DNA from: Rhodocyclaceae bacterium
Lineage (GTDB): Bacteria > Pseudomonadota > Gammaproteobacteria > Burkholderiales > Rhodocyclaceae
Length of the DNA stretch: 64,000 nucleotides
Assembly: GCA_023150275.1 (NCBI GenBank)
Contig: JAKLLG010000002.1
Coordinates: forward strand, 12,511-76,510
Direction of reading: 5' to 3'
Part shown: positions 24,241-41,656 of the stretch, piece by piece
Layout: every line of letters starts with the position of its first letter
How positions within the stretch are numbered: the first letter of the stretch is position 1
The notes under the pieces: generated by a model
The model's database searches: none
What the model was told of the DNA's origin: nothing
What the model saw: the letters and a program-made list of their open reading frames with translations, nothing else
Position numbers and translations under genes: made by a program

Positions 24241-25351
24241 GAACAATACCGTCGTCGTCGGCCTGTCAGGCGGCGTCGATTCGTCGGTGGCGGCTTTGTT
24301 GTTGAAGCAGCAGGGCTGGAGGGTAATCGGCCTGTTCATGAAGAACTGGGAGGACGACGATACTGACGAGTACTGTTCGTCACGCCAGGATCTGGTCGAC
24401 GTGATGAGCGTTGCCGATCGTATCGGCATCGATGTCGAGGTGGTGAATTTCGCGAAGGAATACAAGGAGCGCGTCTTTGCCGAGTTCCTCAAGGAGTATC
24501 AGGCCGGACGAACACCGAATCCCGACGTGCTGTGCAATTCGGAAATCAAGTTCCGTGCCTTCCTCGATCATGCCTTGAAGATGGGCGCATCAAAGATTGC
24601 CACCGGGCACTACGCCGGCGTGCGCGAAGTGCCGTCGCCAGGCGGCGTTGGCGTCGAATACCAGTTGCTGAAGGCGGAGGACGGCACCAAGGATCAAAGC
24701 TACTTTCTGCATCGCCTGAACCAGGCGCAGCTATCCAGAACGATATTCCCGCTTGCTCAGGTGTACAAACGCGATGTGCGTCGCATTGCCGAAGAAGCTG
24801 GACTGCACGTCGCCGCGAAGAAGGATTCGACTGGCATCTGCTTCATCGGCGAGCGCCCCTTCAAGGAGTTTCTGATGCGCTATCTGCCGCCGCGAAAGGG
24901 CGAGATTCGCGAACTCGACTCCGGGCGCGCGCTTGGCGAACACGATGGCATGACTTATCACACGATCGGCCAGCGCAAGGGGCTACTGATCGGCGGAGTC
25001 AAGGGCGGAAAAGGGGCCGAGAGCGGCGAGCACGACGCCTGGTTCGTTGCGCAGAAGGATGTGGAGAAGAACATTCTCTATGTCGTGCAGGGCCACGATC
25101 ACCCGGCGCTGCAGCGGGAATCCCTGCTGGCTGCCGATCTGTCGTGGGTATCCGGCCGTGCGCCGCACACGCACTGGGTCTATTGTGCGAAGACGCGCTA
25201 CCGGCAGGAAGACGCGGCCTGCGAAGTGGAGCGCGTCGACGCCGACAACTGCGAGATCCGTTTCGCTGCGCCGCAGTGGGCGGTGACGCCGGGCCAGTCG
25301 GTCGTGCTCTACGAATCCCGGGTCTGCCTCGGTGGGGGCGTGATCCAGTAA
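24203..25351 (+). CDS. mnmA: tRNA 2-thiouridine(34) synthase
   Basis: PP-loop [12 protein letters not shown]. Conserved MnmA C-terminal region. Alternative GTG start at 24230. Confidence 0.9.
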
Positions 25352-26793: not shown

Positions 26794-28188
<1,395 letters not shown>

Positions 28189-28518: not shown

Positions 28519-28530
28519 TCCACCGAACGC

Positions 28531-28580
28531 AAAGCGCCCCGATCCGGCAACGGATCGGGGCGCTTTGCTTTGCTGTCTTT
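28531..28580 (+). terminator. rho-independent terminator
   Basis: aaagcgccccgatccg-gcaa-cggatcggggcgcttt hairpin followed by a T-rich tract. Confidence 0.7.
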
Positions 28581-28638
28581 CCTGAGCGCGTGTTGGGCGG
28601 TTGCTGTCCAGCGGTTCGGAAAAATCTGCGGCAGCCAT

Positions 28639-28682
28639 CGACATAATATGTCTTGACATATTATGTCGTCTCTCCTATAAAT
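28639..28682 (+). promoter_or_regulatory. sigma70-type promoter (-35 TTGACA, 17-bp spacer, -10 TATAAA) embedded in a perfect 12-bp inverted repeat (putative operator)
   Basis: The inverted repeat is cgacataatatg-tcttga-catattatgtcg. -35 TTGACA lies at 28654-28659 and -10 TATAAA at 28677-28682. ATG at 28731 has a GAGGAG RBS. Confidence 0.6.
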
Positions 28683-28730: not shown

Positions 28731-29146
28731 TGAACCATGTGCAAAAACAGATCGAAGGTCTGGATGCGCTCGTCAGCAGCCGTTTGGGCGGCGTGTCGAC
28801 GTCGATGCAGCCGGTGCCTGGTGACATGCCGGTGATCCAGATCGTGGTCGACGGTTACGAGTCGCTGCCCATCTATCTGACTTTTTCAGACGCCCAGTGC
28901 CTGTGTATCTGCTACCTGTGGACGGAAGACGAGGTGGTTGCCGAGCGGCGCGGGGCGCTGATGGAGGCGCTGCTCGATCTCAATATTTCCGTTCCCTTGT
29001 CGTCCTTCGGGCGCATTGGTCGTCACTATGTGTTGTTTGGCGCGCTGGCGCGCGATTCTGCCGTCACTGACATTGCCCAGGACGTGGTGGCATTGCTCGA
29101 CAACGCGGTGGATGCGCTCGACGCGTTTGCCGATTACCTGCGCTGA
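28731..29146 (+). CDS. YjfI-like protein (DUF2170)
   Basis: 139 aa. ...PIYLTFSDAQCLCICYLWTEDEVV... matches the YjfI family by recollection. First gene of the operon. Confidence 0.55.
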
Positions 29147-29170: not shown

Positions 29171-29888
29171 CATGAGTTCCGTCTTTACCAAAATGCTTAC
29201 CCTGGTGCGCGGCAGCGCCCGCGAAATCGGCGAAAGCGTCGTCGATGCCAATGCCACGCGCATCTACGAACAGGAAGTGCATGAAGCACGCAATGCCGTA
29301 GCAACCGCCAAGCAGGAACTGACCGTGGTGATGGCCAAGGCCACGCAGACCGCCCGGGAAATCGAGCGCCTGAAGAAGGAAATTACGCGCTACGAGCAGC
29401 TGGCGGTCGAAGCGCTCGGCAAGCAGGAGGAAGCGCTGGCCGAAGAAGTGGCCGGCAAGGTCGGCGAGCTGGAGGCCGAGCTTGACGAGCAGACCAGGGC
29501 GCATGCCGACTTTACGGTGAACGTCGCCAATCTCAAGGATCTGATCCGCAATGCCGAGGCGCGGCTGCGCGAACATGATCGCGAGCTGGCCGTCGCCAGG
29601 ACGACCGAGAGCGTCTATAAGGCGACCATGACCATTTCCGGCGCCGTAGGCGCCAGCGGCTCGAAGCTGATGAGCGCCAAGGAATCGCTTGAGCGCATCA
29701 AACAGCGGCATGCCGATATGGCCGATCGCATGGCGGCCGCCGACGAGCTTGATCAGGAATTCGGCCATCGCGCGCTGGACAAGAAGCTGGCGGCGGCAGG
29801 CATCGGCGATACCAGCGATCGCAAGGCGCAGGCGCTTTCCCGTATTCGCCAGCAGCATGCAGCCAGGGCCGGCAAGGAAGGCACATGA
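29171..29888 (+). CDS. PspA/IM30 (ESCRT-III-like) family protein, YjfJ-like
   Basis: 239 aa and all-helical. MSSVFTKMLTLVRGSAREIGESVVDANATRIYEQEVHEARNAV... is a typical PspA/IM30 N-terminus. RBS AAGGAGA. Confidence 0.8.
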
Positions 29889-30226
29889 CCGAGGGCAAGC
29901 GTCCGCCGCGCTGGCAGAGTTCGGATCGGGCGATCCGTGCCGTGCAGATCGCGTTCGACGTAGAGGCGGCGGTGCTCAATGCCGTTCGCGCCGCCGCCTT
30001 CAACAATGATCTGTCGACCTCGGATCAGCTGCGTCTGGTGCTCGGGCTGGAGGTGATCCGCAAACCCAAGCGACCGCGCCTGACTGTGTCGCTGTCGCCG
30101 GAGGACTATGCGGTTCTTGGCAAGCGCTACGGAGTCGATCCGGAAAATACCCTGGCAATCAAGGAAAAGGCGTTGGCCGACTTGATCGCATTTGCGCAGC
30201 AAAGCACAATGGCCCGCTCAGACTGA
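29885..30226 (+). CDS. putative DNA-binding protein with two ribbon-helix-helix-like segments
   Basis: ATGA-coupled to pspA. RPRLTVSLSPEDYAVLGKRYGVDPENTLAIKEKALADLI looks like CopG/Arc RHH. The N-terminal half has a similar beta-alpha-alpha pattern. Confidence 0.45.
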   Translation: MTEGKRPPRWQSSDRAIRAVQIAFDVEAAVLNAVRAAAFNNDLSTSDQLRLVLGLEVIRKPKRPRLTVSLSPEDYAVLGKRYGVDPENTLAIKEKALADLIAFAQQSTMARSD

Positions 30227-30268: not shown

Positions 30269-30919
30269 ATGCAGGGCTTGTTCGCTATCGTCACCAGCTG
30301 GCCAACGGCGATCTACACCGTATTGCTTGGTGTCGTCGTTCTCTACTGGGTTCTCGCGCTGGTCGGGCTGGTCGACTTCGAGCACGGCGGCCTGGATCTG
30401 GATGGACACCATGACATAGGGGTTCATGCCGACGGCGATCATCTTTCGACCATCGCCAGCTACGTGGTCGCATTCGGTCTGCACGGCGTGCCCTTCTCGG
30501 TGGTGATCAGCCTGCTGACGCTGATCGCCTGGGTCTGTGCCGGTCTGCTTGCCCAGTACCTGCTGCCGTGGGTGCCAACCCAGACATTGCGTGCGCTGGC
30601 CGGTCTTGGGATGCTGGTTTTCGCCATGGTGCCCGCAATTGTGCTGACCGCCTGGGTGGTCAAACCGATGCGCGGTTTGTTCGTACAGCATGCCGCACGT
30701 TCCAACCGGAGTCTCGTCGGACTCTACTGCCGGGTGACGACGCTCAACGTCAGCGAGCGCTTCGGGCAGGCCGAAGCCAGCGACGGCAACGGCAGCTTCA
30801 ACATCCGTGTTCGTGCCGAGGAGCCCAATGCCCTCACCAAGGGCTCGCGCGCGCTGATTATCGATTACGACGAGAGCAGCCAGCGCTACCGCGTGGAAGC
30901 TGCCGACGAGAACGCTTAA
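30269..30919 (+). CDS. YqiJ/NfeD-like inner-membrane protein (DUF1449, OB-fold C-terminus)
   Basis: An N-terminal TM bundle is followed by a soluble C-terminal domain. Sits directly upstream of the flotillin, as in E. coli yqiJK. RBS GGGGAGG. Confidence 0.6.
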   Translation: MQGLFAIVTSWPTAIYTVLLGVVVLYWVLALVGLVDFEHGGLDLDGHHDIGVHADGDHLSTIASYVVAFGLHGVPFSVVISLLTLIAWVCAGLLAQYLLPWVPTQTLRALAGLGMLVFAMVPAIVLTAWVVKPMRGLFVQHAARSNRSLVGLYCRVTTLNVSERFGQAEASDGNGSFNIRVRAEEPNALTKGSRALIIDYDESSQRYRVEAADENA

Positions 30920-30949: not shown

Positions 30950-33052
30950 ATGGAACTGATCATCACCGCCATCGGCATCTTGGCCCTGTTCATATTCGGC
31001 CTGTTTGCCCTGTTTGCGAAGTTCTACTACAAGGTCGAGCAGGGGCATGCCATGATCGTCAACAACCTGCGGGCCGAACCCGAGGTGACCTTCACCGGCG
31101 GCATGGTTTACCCGATCATCCACAAGATGGAAATGATGGATATCTCCATCAAGACCATCGTCATCAAGCGGACCGGCAACGAGGGTTTGATCTGCAAGGA
31201 CAACATCCGCGCCGACATCGAGGTGACCTTCTTCGTTCACGTGAACAAGACGGCCAGCGACGTGCTCAAGGTGGCGCAGACGATCGGCTGTGCCCGCGCC
31301 TCCTGCCAGGAAACGCTGGAAGAACTGTTCGCCGCCAAGTTTTCCGAAGCGCTGAAGACCGCCGGCAAATCGATGAACTTCGAGGATCTCTATCAGGCTC
31401 GCGATCAGTTTCGCGACGAGATCATCCGCCAGATCGGCGACAACCTCTCCGGCTATGTGCTCGAAGACGCTGCCATCGACTACCTGGAACAGACACCGCT
31501 CGACAAGCTGGATCCCAACAACATTCTCGACGCCCAGGGCATCCGCAAGATCACCGAACTGACTGCCGTCGAGCATATCCAGACCAATCAATGGCAACGC
31601 GACGAACAGGCAAAGATCAAGAAAAAGGACGTTGAAACCCAGGAGACGATCTACGAACTCGAACGCCAGCAGGCCGAGGCGCAGGCCCGACAAGTGCGTG
31701 AGATTGCCGCTGTTCAGGCACGTGAACAGGCGGAGGCGCAGCGTGTGCAGGCAGAGGAAAGGGCCAAGGCCGAGTTGGCCAGGCTCAACGCCGACCAGCT
31801 GATTGCCGTACAACAGGAAAACGTGCAGCGCGAGAAGGAAGTCGCCGAGAACAACCGCAAGCGCGCGGTCGCCATCGAGGAAGAGCGTGTCACCCGCGCC
31901 CGCCAGCTGGAAATCGTCGATCGCGAAAAGGAAGTTACGCTGCAGACCATCGACAAGGACAAGGCCGTCGAAGTGCAGAAGAAGGCCATCGCCGACGTTA
32001 TCCGCGAGCGCGTCATCGTCGAACGCACGGTGGCCGAGCAGGAAGAGGCGATCAAGGAGGTTCGCGTGGTGTCCGAAGCCGACCGCACCCGCAAATCGGC
32101 GGTCATCGAAGCCGAGGGCAAGGCGGAGCACGATCTGGTGCTGGCGGTGAAAGCCGCCGAGGCGGACGAGCGCCGCGCTCGCCATCTGGCCACGCAGGAA
32201 CTGACGCTGGCCGAAGCCAAACTGAAGGTTGCGGAGAAAGAAGCGGAAGCGAAGAAACGCGAAGCCGAGGGAATCGAAGCCTTCACCGCAGCTCCCGGCC
32301 TCGCTCAGGCCAAGGTACAACTGGCGGCTGCCGATGCGACCGAAAAAACCGGCCTGGTCGAAGCCAAGGTCAAGATTGCCGATGCCGAAGCGACGGCCAG
32401 GTTCGGCGCCGCCGAAGCGGAAGCGCTGCGCCTCAAGCTGGAAGCCGAAGCCCAGGGCAAACAGCAACTCGGTCTTGCCGACGTGCATGTGAAGTCGGCC
32501 GACGCCGACGCCGTCAGCAAGCAGGGGCACGCCGAAGCGGAGGCCGTGGAAGCCAGGATGCAGGCCGAGGCGCGTGGCCTCAAGGAGAAATTCGACGCGA
32601 TGCGCGCGATGGCGCCGGAGACCCGGGCGCACGAGGAATACCGCATGCGTTTGCAGAATGCCCACGTCGAAACCCTCAAGGGCATCGAAGCGCAGAAGGA
32701 TATCGCGGCCGAACAGGCGACGGTGCTGTCGACCGCGCTGGGCAACGCCAAGATCGACATCGTCGGTGGCCAGGGCGACTACTTCGAGCGCTTCGTCAAT
32801 GCGCTTGCGGTGGGCAAGGGCATCGATGGCGCGATCGCCAAGAGCGAGACCCTGCAGATTGCACTGAAGGATCATCTGACCGGCGAGCGTGATCTGGTCG
32901 GGGATCTGCAAGGGCTGGTCGGCGCACTGGGTTCTTCTTCCTCCGAGCTGCAACATCTGAGCGTCAGCGCGATGATGGCGAAAGTCATGCAGGAAGGTTC
33001 GGAGGATCAGCGCTCGGCCCTGCAGAACCTGCTCGCTAGCCTGCGCAAGTAA
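30950..33052 (+). CDS. flotillin family protein (SPFH/band-7 domain, YqiK-like), 700 aa
   Basis: N-terminal TM segment and an SPFH domain, then a long Ala/Glu/Lys-rich coiled coil (EAEAQRVQAEERAKAE...). Confidence 0.85.
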   Translation: MELIITAIGILALFIFGLFALFAKFYYKVEQGHAMIVNNLRAEPEVTFTGGMVYPIIHKMEMMDISIKTIVIKRTGNEGLICKDNIRADIEVTFFVHVNKTASDVLKVAQTIGCARASCQETLEELFAAKFSEALKTAGKSMNFEDLYQARDQFRDEIIRQIGDNLSGYVLEDAAIDYLEQTPLDKLDPNNILDAQGIRKITELTAVEHIQTNQWQRDEQAKIKKKDVETQETIYELERQQAEAQARQVREIAAVQAREQAEAQRVQAEERAKAELARLNADQLIAVQQENVQREKEVAENNRKRAVAIEEERVTRARQLEIVDREKEVTLQTIDKDKAVEVQKKAIADVIRERVIVERTVAEQEEAIKEVRVVSEADRTRKSAVIEAEGKAEHDLVLAVKAAEADERRARHLATQELTLAEAKLKVAEKEAEAKKREAEGIEAFTAAPGLAQAKVQLAAADATEKTGLVEAKVKIADAEATARFGAAEAEALRLKLEAEAQGKQQLGLADVHVKSADADAVSKQGHAEAEAVEARMQAEARGLKEKFDAMRAMAPETRAHEEYRMRLQNAHVETLKGIEAQKDIAAEQATVLSTALGNAKIDIVGGQGDYFERFVNALAVGKGIDGAIAKSETLQIALKDHLTGERDLVGDLQGLVGALGSSSSELQHLSVSAMMAKVMQEGSEDQRSALQNLLASLRK

Positions 33053-33631
33053 ATGGCCCGCGAACCCGAACTGCAGTGCTATTGCGGCCCGCGGCAGACG
33101 CTGGCCGTGACGGAGGAGGGCGGTCTGCGCCAGTGGCGCTGCCGGCGCTGCGGCGGCCGACGTTTCCTGCTCGCCGACTTTCGCCGGTGGCGCGAGCAGG
33201 GTGGTGCGCAGCAGCTTGCAGTCGGGTTGCCGGCTGCGGCGACGGAATACCACGAAACCCCATCTTCTCGCCTGTGCCAAAGCTGCGGGCTGATCATGGC
33301 GCGTTACCGGGTGGCCAGCGATCTGGCGTTCCACATTGACCGTTGCGCACCTTGTCAGTCGGTCTGGCTCGATGGCTGCGAGTGGGAAATCCTTGCCAGC
33401 CAGCAGTGGCTGGCACAACTCGACGAGATCATGTCAGATCGCTGGCAGAAACGTCTGCAGCAAAGCGAGGCCGACGCGCGGCGCGAGCAGACCCTGCGCG
33501 TCCGCTTTGGCGATGCCGAGTACGAGCGGTTGCGTGAAATCAGCCGCTGGCTCGCGCAGCAGGCGAAGCGACGGGAAATGCTGGCCTTTCTGAACGCCGA
33601 ACCCTCTGCCGGTGCGGAGCGCCTCCGATGA
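33053..33631 (+). CDS. protein with two zf-TFIIB-type zinc ribbons and a C-terminal coiled coil
   Basis: CYCGP...WRCRRCGGRRFLLADF and CQSCGL...IDRCAPCQSVWLDGCEWEIL both match the CxxC...CxxCxGxWxDxxE pattern. Confidence 0.6.
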   Translation: MAREPELQCYCGPRQTLAVTEEGGLRQWRCRRCGGRRFLLADFRRWREQGGAQQLAVGLPAAATEYHETPSSRLCQSCGLIMARYRVASDLAFHIDRCAPCQSVWLDGCEWEILASQQWLAQLDEIMSDRWQKRLQQSEADARREQTLRVRFGDAEYERLREISRWLAQQAKRREMLAFLNAEPSAGAERLR

Positions 33632-34605
33632 TCGTTCCGCAATACTGGGCCGAAGCCCGCATCCAGGAGCGCCGCGGAAACAGGCAGCTGACCGTGCGCC
33701 GCTTCGGCTGGTCCGAGCATAGCCAGGACGAAGCGCAGGCCAACGCCGAGGCGCGCGTGCGCACCGCGTTCGAGCGTATCGTCTCTGGTGAGAAGCTGCC
33801 CAGACACGAGCCGAAGGTCGCCTACAACGGCGCCGATGGCGTGCCTATCCGCGAAGAAGTACTGGCGCGCCATGGCGATGTCGTGATTACCCGGAATGCC
33901 TACGGCGCGAGTTGCCTCAATACACCGGACGTGCTGTTCGCCGATATCGATTTGCCCGCAACTTCCGCGGCGTCGCGGAAGTTGCTTGTCCATTTTGTCC
34001 TGCCCGGAATGGCGGCAATGGCCGGTTGGCTGACGCATTCGTGGCTTGTCTTTGCGCTGCTCGCCGTGGCGGCAACCGTTTTCGCCGGCACGGTCGCGAA
34101 GCGGCTAGACAGAAATCGCGGGCAACGCATGGAAACCGCCGGGTGTGCGGCCCGCCAGCGTGTCGCAGATTTCGTTGCGGCGCATCCTGACTGGCACGTG
34201 CGGCTCTACCAGACCCCGGCCGGTCTTCGTGCTCTGGTCATGCATCGTACTTTCGATGCCGACGAGCCCGCCGCGCAGGAGTTTTTTCGGGCACTGCACA
34301 GCGATCCGGTCTACGTGCGCATGTGCCGCAACCAGAAATGCTTCCGTGCCCGCGTCAGTCCCAAACCCTGGCGCGTCGGCATGATCCGGCATATCCGGCC
34401 GCGTCCCGGCGTGTGGCCGGTCAGGACCGAGCATCTGGCCCTGCGCCGGGAATGGATTGCCGAGTATGAAAACCGGGCCAGGAGCCACGCTTCCTGCCGC
34501 CTCATTGCAACTCTTGGTTCGCCGACGGTAGACCCCAAGGCGTTCGCCGTACAAACCCTGCATGACGAGTTGAGTCAGGCCGCTTCGTCACTGCCTCTTG
34601 CCTGA
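33628..34605 (+). CDS. hypothetical protein (325 aa, central hydrophobic segment)
   Basis: ATGA-coupled. One or two TM helices (LLVHFVLPGMAAMAGWLTHSWLVFALLAVAATVFAG). No recognisable motif. Confidence 0.5.
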   Translation: MIVPQYWAEARIQERRGNRQLTVRRFGWSEHSQDEAQANAEARVRTAFERIVSGEKLPRHEPKVAYNGADGVPIREEVLARHGDVVITRNAYGASCLNTPDVLFADIDLPATSAASRKLLVHFVLPGMAAMAGWLTHSWLVFALLAVAATVFAGTVAKRLDRNRGQRMETAGCAARQRVADFVAAHPDWHVRLYQTPAGLRALVMHRTFDADEPAAQEFFRALHSDPVYVRMCRNQKCFRARVSPKPWRVGMIRHIRPRPGVWPVRTEHLALRREWIAEYENRARSHASCRLIATLGSPTVDPKAFAVQTLHDELSQAASSLPLA

Positions 34606-34610
34606 ATGCC

Positions 34611-37600
34611 ATGAGCCAAACCGAAAACCCCGATGCCGTAGATGCCGCCGTTGCCGAAGGCGGCAGTTACGAACTGCTGAAAAAGCGCCTGCAGCTGCAG
34701 GGCGATGCGCTGGCCGGAAAGATCAGGCGGCTGAACGAGGATCGTCTGGCCGCGTTCGGCCGTTCCGACCTGCGTCTGCTCAGTCGCTTGCGCGCACGCA
34801 CCGAGAACAACTGTGTGGCGCGCGACATCGTCCGCGTCGGTGATCTGCTGGTCTTCGGCTACAACGTCTTCATGGGGCTGCGTCAGGAGATTCGCGCGGC
34901 CGACGTGTTCAGCCTGTATCGCCTCGGCGAAGGTGCCGGCAGTGAAGAACTGGAGCCGGTTGCGCTGGAAGGCAGTTTTCTCGCCGACCCGCGTTTCACC
35001 CTCGATTTCCGCGAGCTCTACACCTATTACAAGCAGGCCAGCCTGACGCAATTGCGGGTGCATCAGCACAAGCTGCTGGCTGCGTTCCAGATCGGGCCGC
35101 AACTGACCGACCTGCGCGTCTTCCGGTGGTCGATCGAGGCCGATGGCGGCCTCAAGTACATCGACAATCGCGGCGAACGCGACATCGCCCTGCCGGCCGC
35201 GCACGATTTTGAATGGTCGGTGAGCCGGCGCGAAGACCACGTCACCGGCAAGCATCCGCATGTGAATATCCTCGACACCATTTTTGTCGAGACCATCGGC
35301 GGCGATCTCACCGTCAAGATAGAGAACAATACCGAGAGCGGACTCGGCATCTACAGCGAGCCGGTGGAAGACAAGAACCAGTCGCTGGTCGATGCCGAGA
35401 TCTACCACGCCCGCCTGGGTTCGCTGATCCTGCTGCGCATCAAGCCCTACCGCGAAAGCGAATATCGCTACCTGGTCTACAACCACCGTACCCAGCATGT
35501 CGTTCGCATCGATGCCATCGGCCCCTCGTGCGTGCAGTTGCCGGAAGACCACGGCATCATTTTCCCGGGCGGTTACTACCTGCAATCCGGCGAATACAAG
35601 CGCTTCGATCTGCCGGCCGAGGCCATCGCCGGACTGCGCTTCAAGCGCATGCTGCGCTCGCCCAACGGCGAGGATGTGCTCTACGTGTTCTACCAGCCGG
35701 GCGGCGGGCAGTACGGCTTGTTTACCTACAACCTGATCGAAAAACGTCTGGGTACGCCGGTGCTTTCGAATGGCTACGCCCGCTTCGACGACGGCCGCAT
35801 GCTGGTCTTCCAGAGCGACGGCAGCGACCCCGTCCGCCTGCACCCGATGCAGTTGTGGCAAACCCCCTTCGTCAGCGACGACCATGCCGAGCGCCATGTC
35901 GATCGGCAGAGCTTCTTTGGCCGCATCGGCAACGCCGAGCTGGTGCGGGGTATCGCCGAATCGATGGAGATCAGCCGCGCCGTCGGCGAGCAGGCGCCGA
36001 CCCGCGTCGTCTACGAAGATATGCTCCGCCTTTGCGGGCGGGTACTGGACGGCTATTTCTGGCTGGACAGCGACGAGGCCGGCCACGCCGACGCCGATCT
36101 GCGCGCCATCGCCGGCACCGCACGGGCGGCGCTGGACGAGTTCGACAAGGTGGCGGCGATCCGGCGCGAGGCCTCGCGCCTTCTGGCCCAGGCCGAAGGC
36201 GAACAGCACGGCCTGCTGACCGACATCGCCGCCAGGCTCTGGCAACATCCGGACGATTTCGTTGCCATGCTCGACCGCCTGCGCCTGCAGCGCGGCCGCC
36301 TGCTCGGGCTGCGCGAACAGCGCTACATCGACCTTGCCCGAATCGAGGCTCTGGATCAGCAACTCGGCGAGGAGCAGAAGCGGGTCGGCGAAAAGACCCT
36401 TGTCTTCCTGCTCACCGACAAGGCATTCCAGCCCTACCAGGCGGCGCTAGCGGCCTGCGCCACGGCGATCGCCGCCGCCGCCACGACCGGCCAGCTCGAC
36501 GAACAGGGCAAGGGTCTGGAACAGACTGCGCATGCGCTCGACCTGCTCAACGACCTGGTCGCCAACCTGCCCGGCGGCGACGCGACCTCGCGGACCGCCA
36601 TCCTCGAACAGATTTCCGCGGTCTATGCCGAAACCAATCGCCTGCGTGCTGAGGTTCGCAACCGGCGCAAACAACTGGCCACCACCGAACTGGCCTCGGA
36701 ATTCGGCGCCCAGTTCAGGCTGCTCGGGCAGTCGGTGGAAAGCGCGCTGGAGCGCGTCGATACCCCGGAGCAATGCGACGACGCGCTGACCCGGCTGCTC
36801 GCGCAACTGGAAGAACTGGAAGGCCGTTTTGGCGAACAGGAGCAATTCGCCGCCGATCTCGACGAGAAGCGCGAATCGATCTACGAAGCGCTCACTGCGA
36901 AGAAGCAGCAACTGCTGGAAGTCCGTCAGCGCCGTACGCAGATCCTGCTCGATTCCGGTCAGCGCATTCTGGCCGGCGTACCGCGCCGCGTGCAGCAGTT
37001 TACGGTGCTCGACGAAGTCCATGCCTATTTTGCCGGCGACCCTCTGCTCGCCAAATGCCGCAGCATTTGCGACGAACTGCGCGGCATCGGGGCGCAGGTG
37101 CAGGCCGACGATCTCGACACTCGCCTCAAGACCGCCCGCGATCAGGCGCTGCGGGCGGTGCGCGATCGTTCCGAACTGCTCGCCGACGACGGCAACACCA
37201 TCCGCCTCGGCCGTCACGCCTTCACCGTCGGGCGCCAGGCGCTCGAACTGACGCTGGCGCCGAGCGGCGATGGCCTGGCCTACCACCTGACCGGTACCGA
37301 CTACCTGGTGCCCTTCGTGCATGACGAAGCGCAGCGCCTGCAGCCCTATTGGACGATGGCGCTGGTTTCCGAATCGCCGGCCTTCTATCGCGCCGAGTAT
37401 CTGGCCGGGGAAGTGCTGCTGGCGAGCCAGCGCGGCGAAATCGCCGCTTCGTTCGAGGCTCTGCAGGCCTTGTGCCTTGCCGCCGAAGGCGAGCGCGACG
37501 GCTTGCTCGCAGTCGTCCGCGATTTCTCGGCGAGCCGCTATCAGGAGGGCTACCAGAAAGGGGTGCATGACCACGACGCCGCAGCCATTCTCGCCGCACT

Positions 37601-39887
37601 GGTGCCGATGCAGGCGCACGCGGGGCGGCTGGCCTTCAGCCCGCGCGCCCGGGCTCTCGCCGCGCTCTACTGGCTGCAGGGCGTGCCGGCCATCGAGCGG
37701 CCGGGGCTGCAGCGGCAGGCAGCGAGTGCCGGCCAGATCCATGCGTTGTTCGGTGCCGGCCGCGTTCGCGAAGCGCTGGTCGTTCGCTGGCAGCCGGCCA
37801 TTGCCCGCTTTGCCGAGCGGGAGCAATTGCTGGCGCTATGGCAGACGGGTCCGGTGCTGGTCGATGAAGCGGCCGCTTATCTGGCCGAGGAGCTTGCCAG
37901 CGGCGGCGAATGGGTCGCCAGTGGCGCCGCACTGGATCTTGCAGAGGCCTTCACCCGCCATCTCGAACGGGCAAATCACCTGGGACGCTGGCGCGAGCAA
38001 TTGGCCGACTGTGTGCCGCTGGAATGCTGGCAACTGGCCCGCGACTGGGTCGAGAGCTACTGCGCCGCAGCTGCGCCGGAGGCAGCGGCGTGGAGCGACG
38101 AAGCAGCCGCCACCCTGGTGCTGGAATTGCCGCGGCAACGCCACAACGCCGGCTTGAGCGTGACGGTCGGCGGGTTGCGCGGCGAACACCCGCGCGTCGT
38201 CAATGGAGAACTGGCGCTCAATCTCAACGATTTCCATCTGCGGGCGCGTACCCACCGGCAGGAGATCGTTCCCGGGGTTCTGCGCTGGCACGCCTTGCGC
38301 CAGGAACTGGTGGCGAGCGAAAAGGCGCGCCTGAGCCTTGAACAGTTCCAGGCCAAACCGCTCTCCAGTTTCGTGCGCAATCACCTGATCGATGAGGTCT
38401 ATCTGCCGCTGGTCGGCGACAACCTCGCCAAGCAGATCGGTGCCGCCGGCGACAGCAAGCGCACCGACCGCATGGGCATGCTGCTGCTGATTTCGCCGCC
38501 GGGCTATGGCAAGACGACGTTGATGGAATACATCGCCGACCGTCTGGGCCTGATATTCGTGCGCATCAACTGCCCGGCGCTGGGCCACGACGTCGTCTCG
38601 CTCGACCCCGACAAGGCGCCGCACAGCGGCGCCCGGCAGGAACTGGAGAAGCTGAACCTCGGCCTGGCGATGGGCAACAACGTCATGCTGTACCTCGACG
38701 ATATCCAGCACACTCACCCGGAGTTCCTGCAGAAGTTCATCGCGCTGTGCGACGGAACCCGCCGCATCGAGGGCGTCTGGCAGGGGCGGCCTCGCAGCTA
38801 CGATCTGCGCGGCAAGCGCTTTGCGGTGGTGATGGCCGGCAATCCGTATACCGAATCGGGCGAGGCTTTCAGGATTCCCGACATGCTTGCCAACCGCGCC
38901 GACATCTACAACCTCGGCGACGTACTCTCCGGCCGCGAAGCGGCCTTCGCGCTTTCCTACATCGAGAACAGCCTGACCGCCAACCCGGCGCTGATGCCGC
39001 TGGCGACGCGCGATCCCAAGGATATCGACCGTCTGGTCAAGCTGGCACAGGGGCACGACATCCCGGCCAGCGAGTTTGCACACGGCTACAGCGCGGCCGA
39101 ACTGAGCGAGCTGACCGCCATCCTGCAACGCCTGTTCACCGTTCGCGACGTGCTGCTCAAGGTCAACCTCGCCTACATCCAGTCCGCCGCGCAAGAAGAC
39201 GACTACCGTACCGAACCGCCGTTCAAGCTGCAGGGCAGCTATCGCAACATGGCCAAGCTCGCGGCCAAGGTCACCGCGATCATGGATCCGCAGGAGCTGG
39301 ACAACCTGCTGCGCGACCACTACCGCGGCGAAGCGCAGACCCTGACCACCGGCGCCGAGGAGAATCTGCTCAAGCTGGCGATGCTGATCGGCACGCCGAC
39401 GGCCGATGAAACGCGGCGTTGGCAGGCGATCTGCGAGGACTACCGCCGCTTCAAGAAACTCGGCGGCGCCGAGAGCGACGGCGCCACGCGGGTCGCCAAC
39501 CTGCTCGCCGACATCGGGGTGACTCTGGATGGGCTGAGGCAGCAACTTGCGAGTCCTGTACCGGGAACTCCCGATTGGCCTGCGGAGCTAGGGTCGCTAC
39601 GCAACACCATTGCTGCGATCAAACCCCAGGTGACAGTCGATGTCGCCGAGTCGCCGGCAATCGCCGCCATCGTTGACCGCCTGGCAGAGACCTACGAAAA
39701 GGGGATTGCGCCGCTGGTCAATGCGACCTATCACAAACTCAAGCTCGATCATGACATGTGGGAACGTCTGCGCGACATGGCGAAGGACATCAAGCGCCTG
39801 GACGCAGCGCTTGAACAAGCCGATTCACCAAAACCCGCGCCCAAGCCGCGCAAAACCGGAGGCAGCCATGAGCAAGGAAAGTCGTGA
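34611..39887 (+). CDS. 1758-aa multidomain protein with C-terminal AAA+ (AAA_5/MoxR/McrB-like) ATPase domain
   Basis: Walker A LLISPPGYGKTTL (nt ~38490-38520). Walker B NVMLYLDDIQH. Sensor/arginine region VVMAGNPYTESGEAFRIPDMLANRADIY. Precedes these with a beta-rich N-terminal domain and an ~800-aa helical region. Confidence 0.8.
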   Translation: MSQTENPDAVDAAVAEGGSYELLKKRLQLQGDALAGKIRRLNEDRLAAFGRSDLRLLSRLRARTENNCVARDIVRVGDLLVFGYNVFMGLRQEIRAADVFSLYRLGEGAGSEELEPVALEGSFLADPRFTLDFRELYTYYKQASLTQLRVHQHKLLAAFQIGPQLTDLRVFRWSIEADGGLKYIDNRGERDIALPAAHDFEWSVSRREDHVTGKHPHVNILDTIFVETIGGDLTVKIENNTESGLGIYSEPVEDKNQSLVDAEIYHARLGSLILLRIKPYRESEYRYLVYNHRTQHVVRIDAIGPSCVQLPEDHGIIFPGGYYLQSGEYKRFDLPAEAIAGLRFKRMLRSPNGEDVLYVFYQPGGGQYGLFTYNLIEKRLGTPVLSNGYARFDDGRMLVFQSDGSDPVRLHPMQLWQTPFVSDDHAERHVDRQSFFGRIGNAELVRGIAESMEISRAVGEQAPTRVVYEDMLRLCGRVLDGYFWLDSDEAGHADADLRAIAGTARAALDEFDKVAAIRREASRLLAQAEGEQHGLLTDIAARLWQHPDDFVAMLDRLRLQRGRLLGLREQRYIDLARIEALDQQLGEEQKRVGEKTLVFLLTDKAFQPYQAALAACATAIAAAATTGQLDEQGKGLEQTAHALDLLNDLVANLPGGDATSRTAILEQISAVYAETNRLRAEVRNRRKQLATTELASEFGAQFRLLGQSVESALERVDTPEQCDDALTRLLAQLEELEGRFGEQEQFAADLDEKRESIYEALTAKKQQLLEVRQRRTQILLDSGQRILAGVPRRVQQFTVLDEVHAYFAGDPLLAKCRSICDELRGIGAQVQADDLDTRLKTARDQALRAVRDRSELLADDGNTIRLGRHAFTVGRQALELTLAPSGDGLAYHLTGTDYLVPFVHDEAQRLQPYWTMALVSESPAFYRAEYLAGEVLLASQRGEIAASFEALQALCLAAEGERDGLLAVVRDFSASRYQEGYQKGVHDHDAAAILAALVPMQAHAGRLAFSPRARALAALYWLQGVPAIERPGLQRQAASAGQIHALFGAGRVREALVVRWQPAIARFAEREQLLALWQTGPVLVDEAAAYLAEELASGGEWVASGAALDLAEAFTRHLERANHLGRWREQLADCVPLECWQLARDWVESYCAAAAPEAAAWSDEAAATLVLELPRQRHNAGLSVTVGGLRGEHPRVVNGELALNLNDFHLRARTHRQEIVPGVLRWHALRQELVASEKARLSLEQFQAKPLSSFVRNHLIDEVYLPLVGDNLAKQIGAAGDSKRTDRMGMLLLISPPGYGKTTLMEYIADRLGLIFVRINCPALGHDVVSLDPDKAPHSGARQELEKLNLGLAMGNNVMLYLDDIQHTHPEFLQKFIALCDGTRRIEGVWQGRPRSYDLRGKRFAVVMAGNPYTESGEAFRIPDMLANRADIYNLGDVLSGREAAFALSYIENSLTANPALMPLATRDPKDIDRLVKLAQGHDIPASEFAHGYSAAELSELTAILQRLFTVRDVLLKVNLAYIQSAAQEDDYRTEPPFKLQGSYRNMAKLAAKVTAIMDPQELDNLLRDHYRGEAQTLTTGAEENLLKLAMLIGTPTADETRRWQAICEDYRRFKKLGGAESDGATRVANLLADIGVTLDGLRQQLASPVPGTPDWPAELGSLRNTIAAIKPQVTVDVAESPAIAAIVDRLAETYEKGIAPLVNATYHKLKLDHDMWERLRDMAKDIKRLDAALEQADSPKPAPKPRKTGGSHEQGKS

Positions 39888-40104
39888 TTATCTGGAAATG
39901 AGCTTTCGCTCCATTCAGTGTTTCACTGACGATGGAAGATTGATGCCGGAAGAACTGCAACGCATTGCCGACATCGCCTTGCGCGACGGCGTGGTCGATG
40001 CGAACGAAAAGCGCGTGCTGGCGAGCATCATCGGCAAGCTGACGAAGGAGGAACTGACGCCTTCCATGCAGACTAAGCTAACCGAACTTGCGAAGTACAT
40101 TTGA
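39868..40104 (+). CDS. small TerB-like domain protein
   Basis: ATG with GGAGG RBS. Overlaps the giant gene's 3' end by 20 nt. TDDGRLMPEELQRIADIALRDGVVDANEKRVLASII matches the TerB acidic-repeat pattern (DG.vd..E...L..I). Confidence 0.55.
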   Translation: MSKESRDYLEMSFRSIQCFTDDGRLMPEELQRIADIALRDGVVDANEKRVLASIIGKLTKEELTPSMQTKLTELAKYI

Positions 40105-40474: not shown

Positions 40475-41656
40475 ATGAATCCTCGTTCAGCACAATCCGA
40501 TCTCGCCCGATTGCTATCGGAATTTCCGGCTGTCGTTCTGCTGGGGCCGCGTCAGGCTGGCAAGACGACGCTGGCGCTCGCCGAAGCCGGGCGGCGCGGC
40601 GACGCTCTGTATCTCGACCTTGAGCTGCCGTCGGCGCAGCGCCAGCTCGACGATCCCGAGGCCTTTCTGCTGGCGCATCCAAAGCGCTTGGTCATTCTTG
40701 ATGAGGTGCAGCGCATTCCGGAACTGTTCGCCATCCTGCGCGGTGTCATCGACCTGCGTCGGCGGGCGGGCGAGGCCGCCGGCCAGTTCCTGCTGCTCGG
40801 CTCCGCTTCCGGGGTGTTGCTGCAGCAGGCCAGCGAAAGCCTGGCTGGCCGGGTGGCGCAACTTGAACTGACGCCGTTTCAGGCGCGGGAAGTGATCGCG
40901 CCGGAAAGCGACGACATGCTCCGCTCGCTCAACGCGCTTTGGGTGCGGGGCGGTTTTCCGCTGGCCTGGCTGGCCGGCGACGATGCTGCCAGCCTGCGCT
41001 GGCGCGAGGCTTTCATTGCCACTTATCTGGAGCGGGACATCCCGGCGCTCGGCCCGCGCATTCCCGCGACGACCTTGCGCCGGTTGTGGACGATGCTGGC
41101 GCACGCGCAGGGCGGCCTGCTCAACCAGTCGCAACTGGCGGCCTCGCTGGCCGTCAGCGGGCAGACGGTGGCGCGCTACATCGATCTGCTCTGCGATCTG
41201 ATGCTCGTGCGCCGCCTGCCGGCCTGGCACGGCAATGTCGGCAAGCGGCTGGTGCGTGCGCCCAAGGTGTACGTGCGCGACAGCGGCCTCGTTCATGCCT
41301 TGCTCGGCCTTGCCGATCTGGACGCGATACTGTCGCACCCGGTTGCCGGTGCCAGTTGGGAGGGCTTCGTCGTCGAGCAGTTGCTGGCTGCGGCGCCGGA
41401 GGCGGAAGCGAGTTTCTATCGCACCTCGCACGGTGCCGAAGCCGATCTGGTGTTGACGTTGCGAAACGGGGATGTCTGGGTGGTCGAGATCAAGCGTTCC
41501 TCGGCGCCCACGGTGTCGAAGGGGTTTCATCTGGCGGCGGTCGATGTCGGCGCCAGCCGCAAGCTGCTGGTGGCGCCGGTGGCGAGCACCTATCCGCTGC
41601 GCGAGGGGATCGAGGTAATGAATCCGCTGGCGGCGGCGAAGTTGCTCGCCGGGTAA
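40475..41656 (+). CDS. AAA+ ATPase with C-terminal DUF4143 (COG1373 family)
   Basis: Walker A GPRQAGKTTL and Walker B LVILDEVQ. The C-terminal GASWEGFVVEQL is typical of the DUF4143 family. Confidence 0.75.
   Translation: MNPRSAQSDLARLLSEFPAVVLLGPRQAGKTTLALAEAGRRGDALYLDLELPSAQRQLDDPEAFLLAHPKRLVILDEVQRIPELFAILRGVIDLRRRAGEAAGQFLLLGSASGVLLQQASESLAGRVAQLELTPFQAREVIAPESDDMLRSLNALWVRGGFPLAWLAGDDAASLRWREAFIATYLERDIPALGPRIPATTLRRLWTMLAHAQGGLLNQSQLAASLAVSGQTVARYIDLLCDLMLVRRLPAWHGNVGKRLVRAPKVYVRDSGLVHALLGLADLDAILSHPVAGASWEGFVVEQLLAAAPEAEASFYRTSHGAEADLVLTLRNGDVWVVEIKRSSAPTVSKGFHLAAVDVGASRKLLVAPVASTYPLREGIEVMNPLAAAKLLAG

Follow-up and report, generated by a model that had tools for sequence, protein, structure and literature searches.

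Here we report that a 1758-aa AAA+ ATPase of a Rhodocyclaceae bacterium, encoded in a 64,000-nt stretch of DNA (contig JAKLLG010000002.1; hereafter the window), belongs to a known protein family whose constant genomic partners are flotillin and an NfeD-like membrane protein, rather than PspA. Because the ATPase gene is almost always located 3' of a flotillin gene, its product most likely remodels the flotillin membrane scaffold under membrane stress, as judged from gene order and protein sequence. The window gene adds a member to this family and no new principle. The features of the operon and the domains of the ATPase are as follows:

28529..28681, + strand, 5' boundary of the operon (sequence, terminator scan)
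28733..29146, + strand, DUF2170 (YjfI / CesT-Tir-like chaperone), equivalent of BacA (Pfam PF09938, E=3.4e-27)
29172..29888, + strand, PspA/IM30 (ESCRT-III-like), equivalent of BacB (Pfam PF04012, E=2e-32)
29885..30226, + strand, 113-aa accessory protein (homologue in 10/59 loci, always near PspA and NfeD)
30269..30919, + strand, YqiJ/YuaF-type short NfeD-like membrane protein, 216 aa, with ~3 TM segments and a C-terminal soluble domain (TM prediction)
30950..33052, + strand, flotillin/SPFH, 700 aa, with one N-terminal TM anchor (Pfam Band_7, TM prediction)
33053..33631, + strand, 192-aa zinc-ribbon accessory protein between the flotillin and ATPase genes (weak Zn_ribbon_TFIIB match)
33628..34605, + strand, 325-aa membrane-associated protein (no family match)
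34611..39887, + strand, ATPase CDS, 1758 aa, DUF3686/DUF7902/AAA+, BacE-family 'DNA repair ATPase' (ORF, Pfam, homologues)
34710..36059, + strand, DUF3686 domain of the ATPase (aa 34-483), comprising an N-terminal helix (aa 7-49) and a beta-propeller-like part (aa 55-417, ~27 strands) (Pfam, AF2)
36060..37178, + strand, helical rod (entire rod aa 435-856) of spectrin-like helical-bundle repeats, containing DUF7902
37188..38333, + strand, middle domain, aa 860-1241 (AF2, pLDDT mostly >90)
38382..39290, + strand, single AAA+ module, aa 1258-1560 (motifs, AAA_5, AF2)
39291..39884, + strand, C-terminal helical extension (conserved to ~aa 1650) and variable, low-confidence basic tail (AF2, conservation)
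39868..40104, + strand, 78-aa small protein with two D-G...E motifs, weakly TerB/EF-hand-like (GGAGG 7 nt before ATG)

The ATPase ORF starts with an ATG at 34611, 5 nt behind the stop of the upstream gene, and ends with a TGA at 39885-39887; the product has 1758 aa. It is a genuine gene and no chance ORF: homologues with 98% down to ~30% identity cover its full length. The protein shares 98% identity with metagenomic proteins and 81% with the nearest named MAG protein, and is by sequence a betaproteobacterial (Rhodocyclaceae-like) member of the family. Sequence-based prediction found neither a TM segment (maximum 19-residue Kyte-Doolittle window of 1.4) nor a signal peptide; the ATPase is soluble and cytoplasmic. 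It closes a co-directional, tightly packed cluster as the last large gene, and the genes of PspA (PF04012) and flotillin (Band_7) are located upstream on the same strand, both in line with the preliminary description of this DNA.

The terminator scan called a strong hairpin at 28529-28568, 3' of a DUF2322 gene. A promoter-like site, TTGACA (28653-58)-17 nt-TATAAA (28676-81), was read by eye and is overlapped by a perfect 13-bp inverted repeat, GACATAATATGTC-TT-GACATATTATGTC, at 28640-28667, so that the operon appears to have a sigma70-like promoter with a palindromic operator. The site was not called by the sigma70 scan because of the strict sixth-base rule of the latter, and no sigma54 promoter like that proposed for bacA was seen by eye upstream of 28733. 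The DUF2170 protein matches PDB 8q8o ('DUF2170 family protein') with E=3.8e-7, an entry that we take to be the crystal structure of Pseudomonas aeruginosa BacA reported in PMC10948618. The equivalent of the NfeD-like protein, PA14_16160, has been called 'short NfeD' (PMC13086221). The bulk of the flotillin would be cytoplasmic because of its single N-terminal anchor and the positive-inside rule, the latter reasoned and not computed.

The 113-aa protein has no Pfam match and may be a local regulator because it contains two ribbon-helix-helix-like motifs (by eye). A homologue of the 192-aa zinc-ribbon protein is located directly 5' of the ATPase gene in 5/59 loci, and a remnant is left in loci L001 and L002. 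The 325-aa protein has no family match in Pfam, NCBIfam or PADLOC and is absent from 80/80 metagenomic loci; its gene has shrunk to a 40-codon ORF in 98%-identical relatives, with just the last 27 codons detectable, and the protein is by this comparison lineage-specific and dispensable. The 78-codon ORF, preceded by a GGAGG Shine-Dalgarno sequence, overlaps the last 20 nt of the ATPase gene, as had been noted earlier. Its former label as TerB-like fared less well: the window copy does not match Pfam TerB (PF05099) at E<=10, PF05099 matches 3/5 aligned homologues below threshold (best E 0.0028), one homologue matches DUF533, and EF-hand models are equally weak. Homologues of this small protein (41-66% identity) occur at differing positions in four other ATPase operons. 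A gene for a DUF4143/AAA_14 ATPase is located just downstream in the window, and the operon is flanked by housekeeping genes, mnmA, purB and secD among them.

AlphaFold2 (AF2) models of the ATPase (mean pLDDT 87.8 and 88.3) bear out the three-part layout proposed earlier (beta-rich N-terminus, helical part, C-terminal AAA domain), with ~27 strands in aa 55-417 and an all-helical rod at aa 435-856. The claim that the middle ~800 aa are helical holds for the rod but not for small beta units at aa 862-902 and 1175-1204. Pfam PF12458 (DUF3686) matches with E=5.2e-194 (645 bits, profile positions 2-448 of 448), and DUF7902 (PF25472; E=5.7e-24) is located within the rod (aa 604-688, nt 36420-36674). 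In the model, aa 55-417 are beta-propeller-like; Foldseek searches with the beta domain returned WD40, Kelch, prolyl-oligopeptidase and clathrin terminal-domain propellers with E 1e-6 to 1e-3 and low TM-scores. In the middle domain, a beta-hairpin unit (862-902) precedes a helical domain (927-1170), after which come another beta unit (1175-1204) and a long helix that serves as connector (1205-1241); this domain is the least conserved structured part of the protein (column identity 0.26-0.46).

The motifs of the AAA+ module are located where they had been read: Walker A PPGYGKTT at aa 1296-1303 (nt 38496-38519), Walker B MLYLDD at aa 1359-1364 (nt 38685-38702), and AGNPY (sensor-1 N1411) to the Arg finger R1429 (nt 38835-38897), with a pre-sensor-1 beta-hairpin at aa 1385-1398. 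The ATPase is predicted to be catalytically competent and strongly constrained, because Walker A, Walker B, sensor-1 and the Arg finger (K1301, D1363, D1364, N1411, R1429) are invariant in 33 diverse homologues (32-55% identity to the window protein) and conservation peaks in the AAA+ core (column identity 0.71-0.78, versus ~0.45 elsewhere). The earlier designation as AAA_5-like was correct: Pfam AAA_5 matches aa 1291-1414 with 26.2 bits (cut-off 22). The nearest solved folds are those of the MoxR ATPases CbbQ and NorQ, dynein and midasin, which together with the AAA_5 match above threshold places the module by fold in the MoxR branch (AAA+ clade 7). Pfam AAA_3 (MoxR) did not match at E<=0.01, a PDB sequence search with the whole ATPase gave no match, and the AF2 model has no clear helix-2 insert hairpin, tentatively, as the stretch from beta2 to alpha2 has no predicted strands. 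The features of Vps4 and the classical clade (N-terminal MIT, full-length PF00004, second region of homology) were not found in this combination. In the PDB, an AAA+ profile matched only the P-loop stretch of classical AAA proteins such as NVL, Rix7 and p97, which is not diagnostic.

The protein had been described as not belonging to a standard annotated family, which was incorrect. Its domains are DUF3686, DUF7902 and AAA in Pfam, and NCBI lists it as 'DNA repair ATPase' in hundreds of genomes; the domain order of these PF12458-PF25472-AAA proteins (NCBI PGAP) matches that of the window protein from end to end, with no structural difference. More than 5,800 homologues were found in Proteobacteria, Bacteroidota, Actinomycetota, Deinococcota and Planctomycetota, and members range from 1550 to 2036 aa; rare versions of 1040 aa have no AAA+ domain and do not adjoin flotillin. 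None of 2.9 million viral contigs scanned contained a copy. The family is not a trait of mobile elements, since just 13 of 72,556 plasmid records contain it, most of them megaplasmids, chromids or mislabelled chromosomes. No paper turned up in literature searches on DUF3686 or on the combined NCBI product names, nor any report of physical interaction, ATPase activity or mutant phenotype for any family member.

The architecture has, moreover, been published by Ravi et al. (mSystems 2024; PMC11237479), who named it 'beta-propeller + coiled-coil + AAA ATPase' and located it in CesT/Tir-PspA-YqiJ/YuaF-Band7/flotillin operons; their study, based on comparative genomics only and with Dokdonia donghaensis as example organism, independently predicted a role in sub-membrane dynamics. 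Architecture and neighbourhood are identical to those in the window, and a Flavobacterium locus (L011) is arranged alike. To this the present analysis adds the partner counts, a fold of MoxR/dynein type and the finding that the 'coiled coil' is spectrin-like.

Synteny was counted in the 59 of 80 metagenomic loci that had enough upstream DNA. A flotillin gene is located directly upstream on the same strand in 56/59 loci (95%) and an NfeD/YqiJ-like gene upstream in 54/59 (92%), as in the window, where the NfeD-like gene (30269-30919) and the flotillin gene (30950-33052) precede the ATPase. Flotillin is also directly upstream in L001, L003-6, L009-11, L013, L094 and L095, and the NfeD-flotillin-ATPase triad recurs in a Rhodocyclaceae MAG, Eleftheria, Pseudomonas indica, Flavobacterium litorale, Streptomyces and plasmid pQBR103. 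The ATPase-linked flotillins are homologous across phyla (29-80% identity) and have 647-766 aa in the loci inspected. Three loci (L024, L064, L070) have no upstream flotillin, and no alternative SPFH partner was found in them on inspection. PspA is present in only 23/59 loci (39%), DUF2170/CesT in 22/59, and a TerB-like gene in 3/80. The earlier description stressed PspA and TerB, whereas these counts single out flotillin and NfeD as the obligate partners; PspA is best read as an optional add-on to a flotillin-NfeD-ATPase module. What follows the ATPase gene differs between loci: PLD in 9, rhomboid in 7 and TelA in 2.

As judged from published PCR primers matched on Pseudomonas homologues, bacE of P. 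aeruginosa (PA3728 / PA14_16190) belongs to the same family, again contrary to the view of an unannotated protein. On the homologues, the PA14 junction primers map, with one mismatch, to the 3' end of the flotillin gene and to the site coding for TENNCIA (codons 64-69); the published 21-nt primer apparently has one extra base as printed, and encodes TENNCIA when one A is removed. A search of genome contigs with this primer for the P. aeruginosa locus gave only two unrelated chance matches (L007, L008), which have no homology. The bacABCDEF operon ('biofilm-associated cluster') shares with the window the order DUF2170 (BacA), PspA (BacB), short NfeD (BacC), flotillin PaFlo3 (BacD) and ATPase (BacE). 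P. indica has the identical six-gene bac layout, with an ATPase 51% identical to the window protein. The window operon differs in lacking the terminal HKD/PLD gene (BacF position in P. indica), in having four extra small genes (113, 192, 325 and 78 aa), and in its apparent sigma70-like promoter with palindromic operator, whereas a sigma54 site has been proposed for bacA. The genes bacA-F are transcribed as one unit (RT-PCR), and in a bacA mutant the proteins BacB to BacF are all increased 6- to 13-fold (PMC10948618). Phage infection induces PA3728-PA3732 (PMC12041424), and a paFlo3 (flotillin) mutant of P. aeruginosa has mild phenotypes only (PMC13086221).

We give about even chances to the reading that the ATPase is a soluble mechano-enzyme of the MoxR/dynein/midasin branch that consumes energy as a subunit of a flotillin (SPFH)-NfeD scaffold module. 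The single AAA+ module would form a ring, probably with six subunits like those of CbbQ and NorQ, and each subunit would carry an arm of ~1250 residues consisting of the middle domain, the spectrin-like rod and a terminal beta-propeller. Propeller and rod would bind directly to the membrane-anchored flotillin oligomer, at its cytoplasmic coiled coil or its C-terminal part, or else to clients that flotillin holds. ATP hydrolysis, relayed along the arm, would cause the flotillin-NfeD assembly to be opened, taken apart, moved or reloaded where the membrane is under stress, the direction of remodelling being either assembly or disassembly. In the ~40% of operons that add PspA and a CesT-like chaperone, including that of the window, scaffold remodelling would be coupled to PspA-mediated membrane repair. 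Synteny, the shared compartment, the intact ATPase, the expression of bac and the prediction of Ravi et al. (2024) speak for a scaffold remodeller. The three of 59 loci without flotillin, the 1040-aa versions without AAA+ domain away from flotillin, the mild paFlo3 phenotypes and the lack of a VWA/MIDAS partner of the MoxR kind count against it. Many flotillin-NfeD pairs, such as E. coli yqiJK and B. subtilis yuaFG, exist without such an ATPase, which is thus not needed for basic flotillin function. A bolder version, which we consider possible but doubtful, is a dedicated motor for flotillin 'uncoating' or reloading, in which a hexameric MoxR/dynein-type ring with six propeller-tipped spectrin-like arms grips the cytoplasmic flotillin-NfeD dome and opens or disassembles it mechanically. 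As an ATP-driven remodeller of an SPFH microdomain scaffold it would be the first of its kind known. The arm of propeller and helical rod would parallel, in bacteria, the architecture of eukaryotic membrane coats, and PspA would be drawn to the membrane lesion so exposed.

Two other readings were considered as well. As an analogue of Vps4 the ATPase would disassemble or recycle polymers of PspA, the bacterial ESCRT-III, with flotillin as a mere membrane recruiter. PspA polymers need remodelling, and the window operon and ~39% of loci encode both PspA and a CesT-like chaperone. The ESCRT-III/Vps4 analogy for PspA-associated AAA+ proteins was drawn by Ravi et al. (PMC11237479); the likeness lies in an AAA+ gene sharing an operon with a member of the ESCRT-III superfamily, and a disassembly role is plausible, yet we consider this account unlikely. 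The closest folds, CbbQ and NorQ, are maturation or activation chaperones, and the ATPase might accordingly serve cofactor insertion, maturation or extraction of a client membrane complex corralled by flotillin rather than act on flotillin itself. SPFH cages do enclose clients, such as FtsH in HflK/C, and the varied downstream genes (PLD, rhomboid, TelA) could be clients or co-factors. However, a VWA/MIDAS adaptor, the usual partner of MoxR ATPases, is present in none of the inspected operons (no VWA family was found among the window operon proteins by Pfam or in the annotated neighbourhoods of the homologues examined), and no conserved candidate client gene beyond flotillin and NfeD was found across the loci, which makes such a chaperone decidedly unlikely.

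Two readings remain. An anti-phage or abortive-infection module, in which the ATPase would sense infection and cause membrane or nucleic-acid damage via partners such as the HKD/PLD protein, could claim the phage induction of PA3728-PA3732, the HKD/PLD gene 3' of the ATPase in some operons and the DUF4143/AAA_14 ATPase just downstream in the window. Yet phage induction equally fits a generic envelope-stress response, the PLD gene is missing from the window and most loci, the flanks are housekeeping genes, and viral contigs lack the gene, as do all but the 13 plasmid records. Neither the ATPase nor its operon partners match a defence system in PADLOC-DB v2, where the best matches are mad8 (E=6e-5, confined to 28 P-loop residues) and coiled-coil noise from LmuB/JetC, and we regard a defence role as improbable. 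Of the earlier suggestion of an 'ATP-driven remodeller or effector', the remodeller is still the best reading and the effector is not upheld. That the protein truly serves DNA repair, as its database name implies, is very improbable. The sole basis of this reading consists of labels (Pfam DUF3686 'ATPase involved in DNA repair', NCBI and JGI names) and weak LmuB/SMC-like and RuvB P-loop matches. The former lie on the helical rod (aa 564-854), the latter (NCBIfam, 19 bits versus a cut-off of 282) on the P-loop only; nuclease, helicase and DNA-binding domains are absent, the neighbours encode membrane proteins in 95% of loci, and no paper in the literature searched mentions DUF3686. An SMC/Rad50/RecN-type protein was also rejected: Walker A and B are 60 residues apart in one AAA+ domain C-terminal to the rod, the LmuB/SMC matches are sub-threshold, and the gene context consists of membrane proteins. 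The preliminary description would have yielded to a confident HMM match to a characterised repair ATPase; the HMM match obtained is a confident one, yet to a DUF family, and 'DNA repair' is nominal only, no experimental or contextual basis for the name having been found.

To our knowledge, no energy-consuming factor is known for the assembly, opening or recycling of bacterial flotillin (SPFH) scaffolds, and the ATPase family is the obvious candidate. Its members are spread over five or more bacterial phyla and include one in the pathogen P. aeruginosa, whose operon is linked to biofilm, virulence and phage response. The analysis leaves the label 'DNA repair ATPase' unsupported and identifies flotillin and NfeD as the constant partners; because bacE/PA3728 gives the family a genetically tractable model, the scaffold-remodeller hypothesis is directly testable.

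Among known systems, the MoxR proteins (CbbQ, NorQ, RavA) and the dynein/midasin modules (AAA_5, AAA+ clade 7) share only 15-17% sequence identity with the ATPase. MoxR proteins have ~300-500 aa and a VWA/MIDAS partner, whereas the window ATPase has 1758 aa, a 1250-aa N-terminal arm and no VWA protein. In HflK/C-FtsH and in prohibitin with the m-AAA protease, an SPFH scaffold is likewise coupled in function to an AAA+ machine at the inner membrane. FtsH is a membrane-embedded AAA+ protease of the classical clade inside a periplasm-facing cage; the window ATPase, in contrast, is soluble, without protease domain and of another AAA+ clade, and its partner would be a cytoplasm-facing flotillin.

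The ATPase gene starts 5 nt past the stop of the gene before it, and its 3' end is overlapped, as had been noted at the outset, by a small gene: a 78-codon ORF (39868-40104) with a GGAGG Shine-Dalgarno sequence 7 nt upstream shares the final 20 nt. Homologues cover the full length of the protein from 98% down to ~30% identity, so chance does not account for the ORF: the ATPase gene is conserved. The protein was modelled with AlphaFold2 as two pieces, using alignments of 110 sequences, with a mean pLDDT of 87.8 for residues 1-900 and of 88.3 (pTM 0.75) for residues 860-1758.

Features of the ATPase (window 34611-39887, + strand, 1758 aa, ATG at 34611, stop at 39885-39887); positions are residues
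7-49, N-terminal helix (AlphaFold2)
34-483, DUF3686, PF12458 (Pfam, E=5e-194)
55-417, ~27 beta strands (AlphaFold2)
435-856, all-helical rod (AlphaFold2)
604-688, DUF7902, PF25472 (Pfam, E=6e-24)
862-902, small beta unit (AlphaFold2)
927-1170, helical domain (AlphaFold2)
1175-1204, second beta unit (AlphaFold2)
1205-1241, long helix (AlphaFold2)
1258-1560, AAA+ alpha/beta domain and lid (AlphaFold2)
1288-1381, AAA_22 (Pfam, E=1.7e-08)
1291-1332, AAA (Pfam, E=2.9e-06)
1291-1414, AAA_5 (Pfam, E=9e-06; 26.2 bits against a 22-bit cut-off)
1296-1303, Walker A, PPGYGKTT
1359-1364, Walker B, MLYLDD
1385-1398, beta-hairpin between alpha3 and beta4, the pre-sensor-1 hairpin (AlphaFold2)
1411, sensor-1 Asn in AGNPY
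1429, arginine finger
1561-1758, helical C-terminal extension with a basic tail of low confidence at its end (AlphaFold2)

The ORF and all motifs quoted in the preliminary description are present, and Walker A, Walker B, AGNPY/sensor-1 and the arginine finger do not vary across 33 aligned homologues whose identity to the window protein is just 32-55%. The AAA+ core is the most conserved part (column identity 0.71-0.78), the propeller is intermediate (~0.45-0.55), and conservation is lowest in aa 1000-1250 and the tail. By fold, the AAA+ module can be assigned with confidence to the MoxR/dynein branch, as can the 'coiled coil' to spectrin-like repeats. The beta domain matched WD40, Kelch, prolyl-oligopeptidase and clathrin terminal-domain propellers in the PDB (Foldseek, E 1e-6 to 1e-3) at low TM-scores (<=0.3); we read the modelled domain as a divergent beta-propeller, its strand count being about right for seven blades. 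Transmembrane prediction over the whole protein found no hydrophobic segment, which places the ATPase in the cytoplasm.

The gene belongs to a cluster that follows a separate unit closed by a terminator.

The cluster and its upstream neighbours in the window
24203-25351, +, mnmA, upstream of the cluster
26812-28188, +, purB, upstream of the cluster
after purB, +, DUF2322 gene, last before the terminator
28529-28568, terminator with 18-bp stem (scan call)
28733-29146, +, DUF2170, first cluster gene
29172-29888, +, PspA
29885-30226, +, 113-aa protein
30269-30919, +, YqiJ/NfeD-like protein, 3 TM
30950-33052, +, flotillin, 700 aa, single N-terminal anchor
33053-33631, +, zinc-ribbon protein, 192 aa
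33628-34605, +, membrane protein, 325 aa
34611-39887, +, ATPase
39868-40104, +, 78-aa protein

The cluster is flanked by chromosomal genes of ordinary kinds (sensor kinases, a paaK-like ligase, a GGDEF-EAL protein, secD) and the GC content is unremarkable; neither shows signs of an island. An AAA_14 + DUF4143 ATPase gene (40475-41656) lies directly downstream across a 370-nt gap, in which no terminator was called, and is probably unrelated to the operon.

Just 5' of the DUF2170 gene, within 28640-28681, a perfect 13-bp inverted repeat (GACATAATATGTC-TT-GACATATTATGTC) overlaps a promoter-like site (TTGACA-17 nt-TATAAA) and resembles an operator to which a dimeric repressor would bind; upstream of this gene, no -24/-12 element for sigma54 of the kind proposed for P. 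aeruginosa bacA was seen. The 113-aa protein matched no family; its two ribbon-helix-helix-like segments, recognized by eye, make it a candidate regulator for the palindrome, and homologues usually lie between PspA and NfeD. The 325-aa membrane protein is lineage-specific and dispensable, since it is absent from all 80 metagenomic loci and in relatives with 98% identity (L003-L005) its gene has shrunk to an ORF of 40 codons. The last 27 codons alone are detectable there; the ORF still overlaps the preceding gene by 4 nt and ends 5 nt short of the ATPase start. In the abbreviated operon of a Rhodocyclaceae MAG, a zinc-ribbon gene remnant (aa 150-184, 69% identity; L001 9861-9965, L002 685-789) follows the flotillin gene and precedes the ATPase gene, which suggests recent loss of accessory genes. 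The acidic 78-aa protein, with the motif DDG+LDxxEL...RDGvvDxxE.RVL, recurs in a few ATPase operons (L010 5331-5570, L055, L087, L088), where it precedes the ATPase, neighbours PspA or follows PLD; its weak TerB, DUF533 and EF-hand-like signals suggest that it may bind a cation. Tellurite-resistance-type genes (TelA, TerD) near some distant ATPase operons (L013 13001-14221; L043, L051, L080; L095 16128-16661) echo this TerB-like gene.

Constant partners were sought with the window operon proteins and partners from other loci in 80 metagenomic loci carrying ATPase relatives.

Neighbours of ATPase relatives; upstream counts are from the 59 loci that extend 3 kb or more beyond the ATPase start, same strand required
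Flotillin homologue, upstream, 56/59 (95%), end usually 80-300 nt before the ATPase start
NfeD/YqiJ-like gene, upstream, 54/59 (92%)
PspA, upstream, 23/59 (39%)
DUF2170/CesT, upstream, 22/59 (37%)
113-aa protein, upstream, 10/59
Zinc-ribbon protein, upstream, 5/59
PLD gene, downstream, 9/80
Rhomboid, downstream, 7/80
TelA, downstream, 2/80
78-aa protein, position varies, 3/80

Together with individual genomes, these counts define NfeD-flotillin-ATPase as the core, with PspA and a CesT-like chaperone as a frequent add-on. Co-occurrence with flotillin, PspA and TerB had been suggested for profiling; it is near-constant for flotillin, frequent but far from constant for PspA and rare for the TerB-like protein. 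The Rhodocyclaceae MAG and Streptomyces have just small protein-flotillin-ATPase, Eleftheria adds PLD, Flavobacterium has CesT-PspA-NfeD-flotillin-586 aa-ATPase and a distant lineage NfeD-flotillin-ATPase-TelA; the flotillins are homologous across the compared loci (29-80% identity). On the P. fluorescens megaplasmid pQBR103 (L094, NC_009444.1 85-98 kb) the module is fused to yjfKLMC-like genes, downstream of PspA-rhomboid-DUF2491-DUF350-DUF1190-glutathionylspermidine synthase. This string unites the two classes of PspA operon that Ravi et al. distinguish (PMC11237479).

The earlier idea of an ATP-driven remodeller stands in general terms: the ATPase is a cytoplasmic AAA+ protein of the MoxR/dynein/midasin type, catalytically intact as judged from its residues, with a long arm modelled as a spectrin-like rod and terminal propeller, and its gene is hardly ever found apart from that of a membrane-anchored flotillin, the bulk of which would lie in the cytoplasm. 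By analogy with CbbQ and NorQ, which are hexamers, the AAA+ modules may assemble as a ring. Propeller and rod would bind the flotillin oligomer or a client held by it, and ATP-driven ring movements passing through the arm could open, disassemble, move or reload the flotillin-NfeD assembly at a stressed membrane, which PspA, where present, would repair. We give remodelling of a flotillin-NfeD scaffold about an even chance of being correct; in P. aeruginosa the ATPase is co-expressed with flotillin, NfeD and PspA (PMC10948618).

A Vps4-like engine acting on PspA is unlikely, as PspA is missing from ~61% of the operons, the ATPase lacks an MIT domain and Vps4 is the poorer structural match. Slightly less probable still is MoxR-style maturation of a client complex within flotillin domains, for which neither a VWA partner nor a conserved client gene was found. 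That the operon is an anti-phage module seems improbable given the absence of a PADLOC match, the housekeeping flanks, the lack of copies in viral contigs and the presence of a relative in just 13 of 72,556 plasmids. A true DNA repair ATPase is very improbable: LmuB/SMC-like matches are confined to aa 564-854 and the RuvB score is 19 bits, far below its cut-off of 282. We reject the 'DNA repair' label; its source seems to be the Pfam description together with noise from coiled-coil and P-loop matches.

The preliminary description erred in considering the architecture not a standard annotated family, as DUF3686, DUF7902 and AAA are in Pfam, over 5,800 entries in protein databases match the ATPase at E<=1e-5, and names exist ('DNA repair ATPase' at NCBI; 'ATPase involved in DNA repair' or 'MoxR-like ATPase' at JGI). 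The N-terminal 500 residues alone retrieve 726 clusters (50% identity), of which 253 have E<=1e-30. Full-length members measure 1550-2036 aa, and the family has representatives in Beta- and Gammaproteobacteria, Bacteroidota (Flavobacterium, Sphingobacterium, Hymenobacter), Actinomycetota (Streptomyces, Nonomuraea), Deinococcus and Planctomycetota; the nearest named relative is that of the Rhodocyclaceae MAG (81% identity), and metagenomic proteins reach 98%. Rare 1040-aa versions (P0425/P0426; L012 8001-11123) have DUF3686 and DUF7902 without the AAA+ domain; they do not adjoin a flotillin, and the genes around them in a large Bacteroidota-like genome are of the Por-secretion-tail type. Ravi et al. 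list the architecture as 'Betapropeller+Coiled-coil+AAA-ATPase' in a supplementary table, place it in CesT/Tir-PspA-YqiJ/YuaF-Band7/flotillin operons, some of which have an HKD/PLD hydrolase as well, and noted that abbreviated operons lack PspA (PMC11237479). The window gene is thus a further member of a known, biochemically uncharacterised family and will not surprise a specialist; the family as a whole is a good open problem. This study adds the flotillin/NfeD constancy counts, the AAA+ and rod folds, the rejection of the 'DNA repair' label and the mapping of bacE to the family.

The window DUF2170 protein matches PDB 8q8o (E=3.8e-7), an entry titled just 'DUF2170 family protein', which is presumably the crystal structure of P. 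aeruginosa BacA that PMC10948618 describes. The genes bacA-bacF (PA14_16140-16200, PA3732-PA3727) are co-transcribed, and mutation of bacA increases the BacB to BacF proteins, all of them 6- to 13-fold (PMC10948618). PA14_16160 encodes a short NfeD and PA14_16180 the SPFH protein PaFlo3 (PMC13086221); PA3728 (bacE, PA14_16190) is entered as 'ATPase' (PMC8190622), and PA3728-PA3732 belong to a set of 17 genes that were induced in every phage-infected sample of P. aeruginosa (PMC12041424). We assigned bacE by matching published RT-PCR primers (PMC10948618) to the Pseudomonas homologues. The forward primer of the PA14_16180/90 junction has one mismatch to the flotillin genes of two Pseudomonas loci (L009, L010), ~165 nt before the stop. 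In the supplementary primer table, the reverse primer PA14_16180/90_R has 21 nt (GCGATGCAGTTGTTTTTCGGT), against 20 nt for all others (PMC10948618); minus one T, it encodes in frame, with one mismatch, the family motif TENNCIA (ATPase codons 64-69), so the printed primer probably has one extra base. Judged from both primer matches, BacE is a member of the window ATPase family. Computational descriptions of the family, its architecture and its operon already exist, and P. aeruginosa is the host in which an orthologous operon is being studied; Pseudomonas indica has the six genes DUF2170-PspA-213 aa-680 aa flotillin-1748 aa ATPase-PLDc_2, with an ATPase 51% identical to that of the window.
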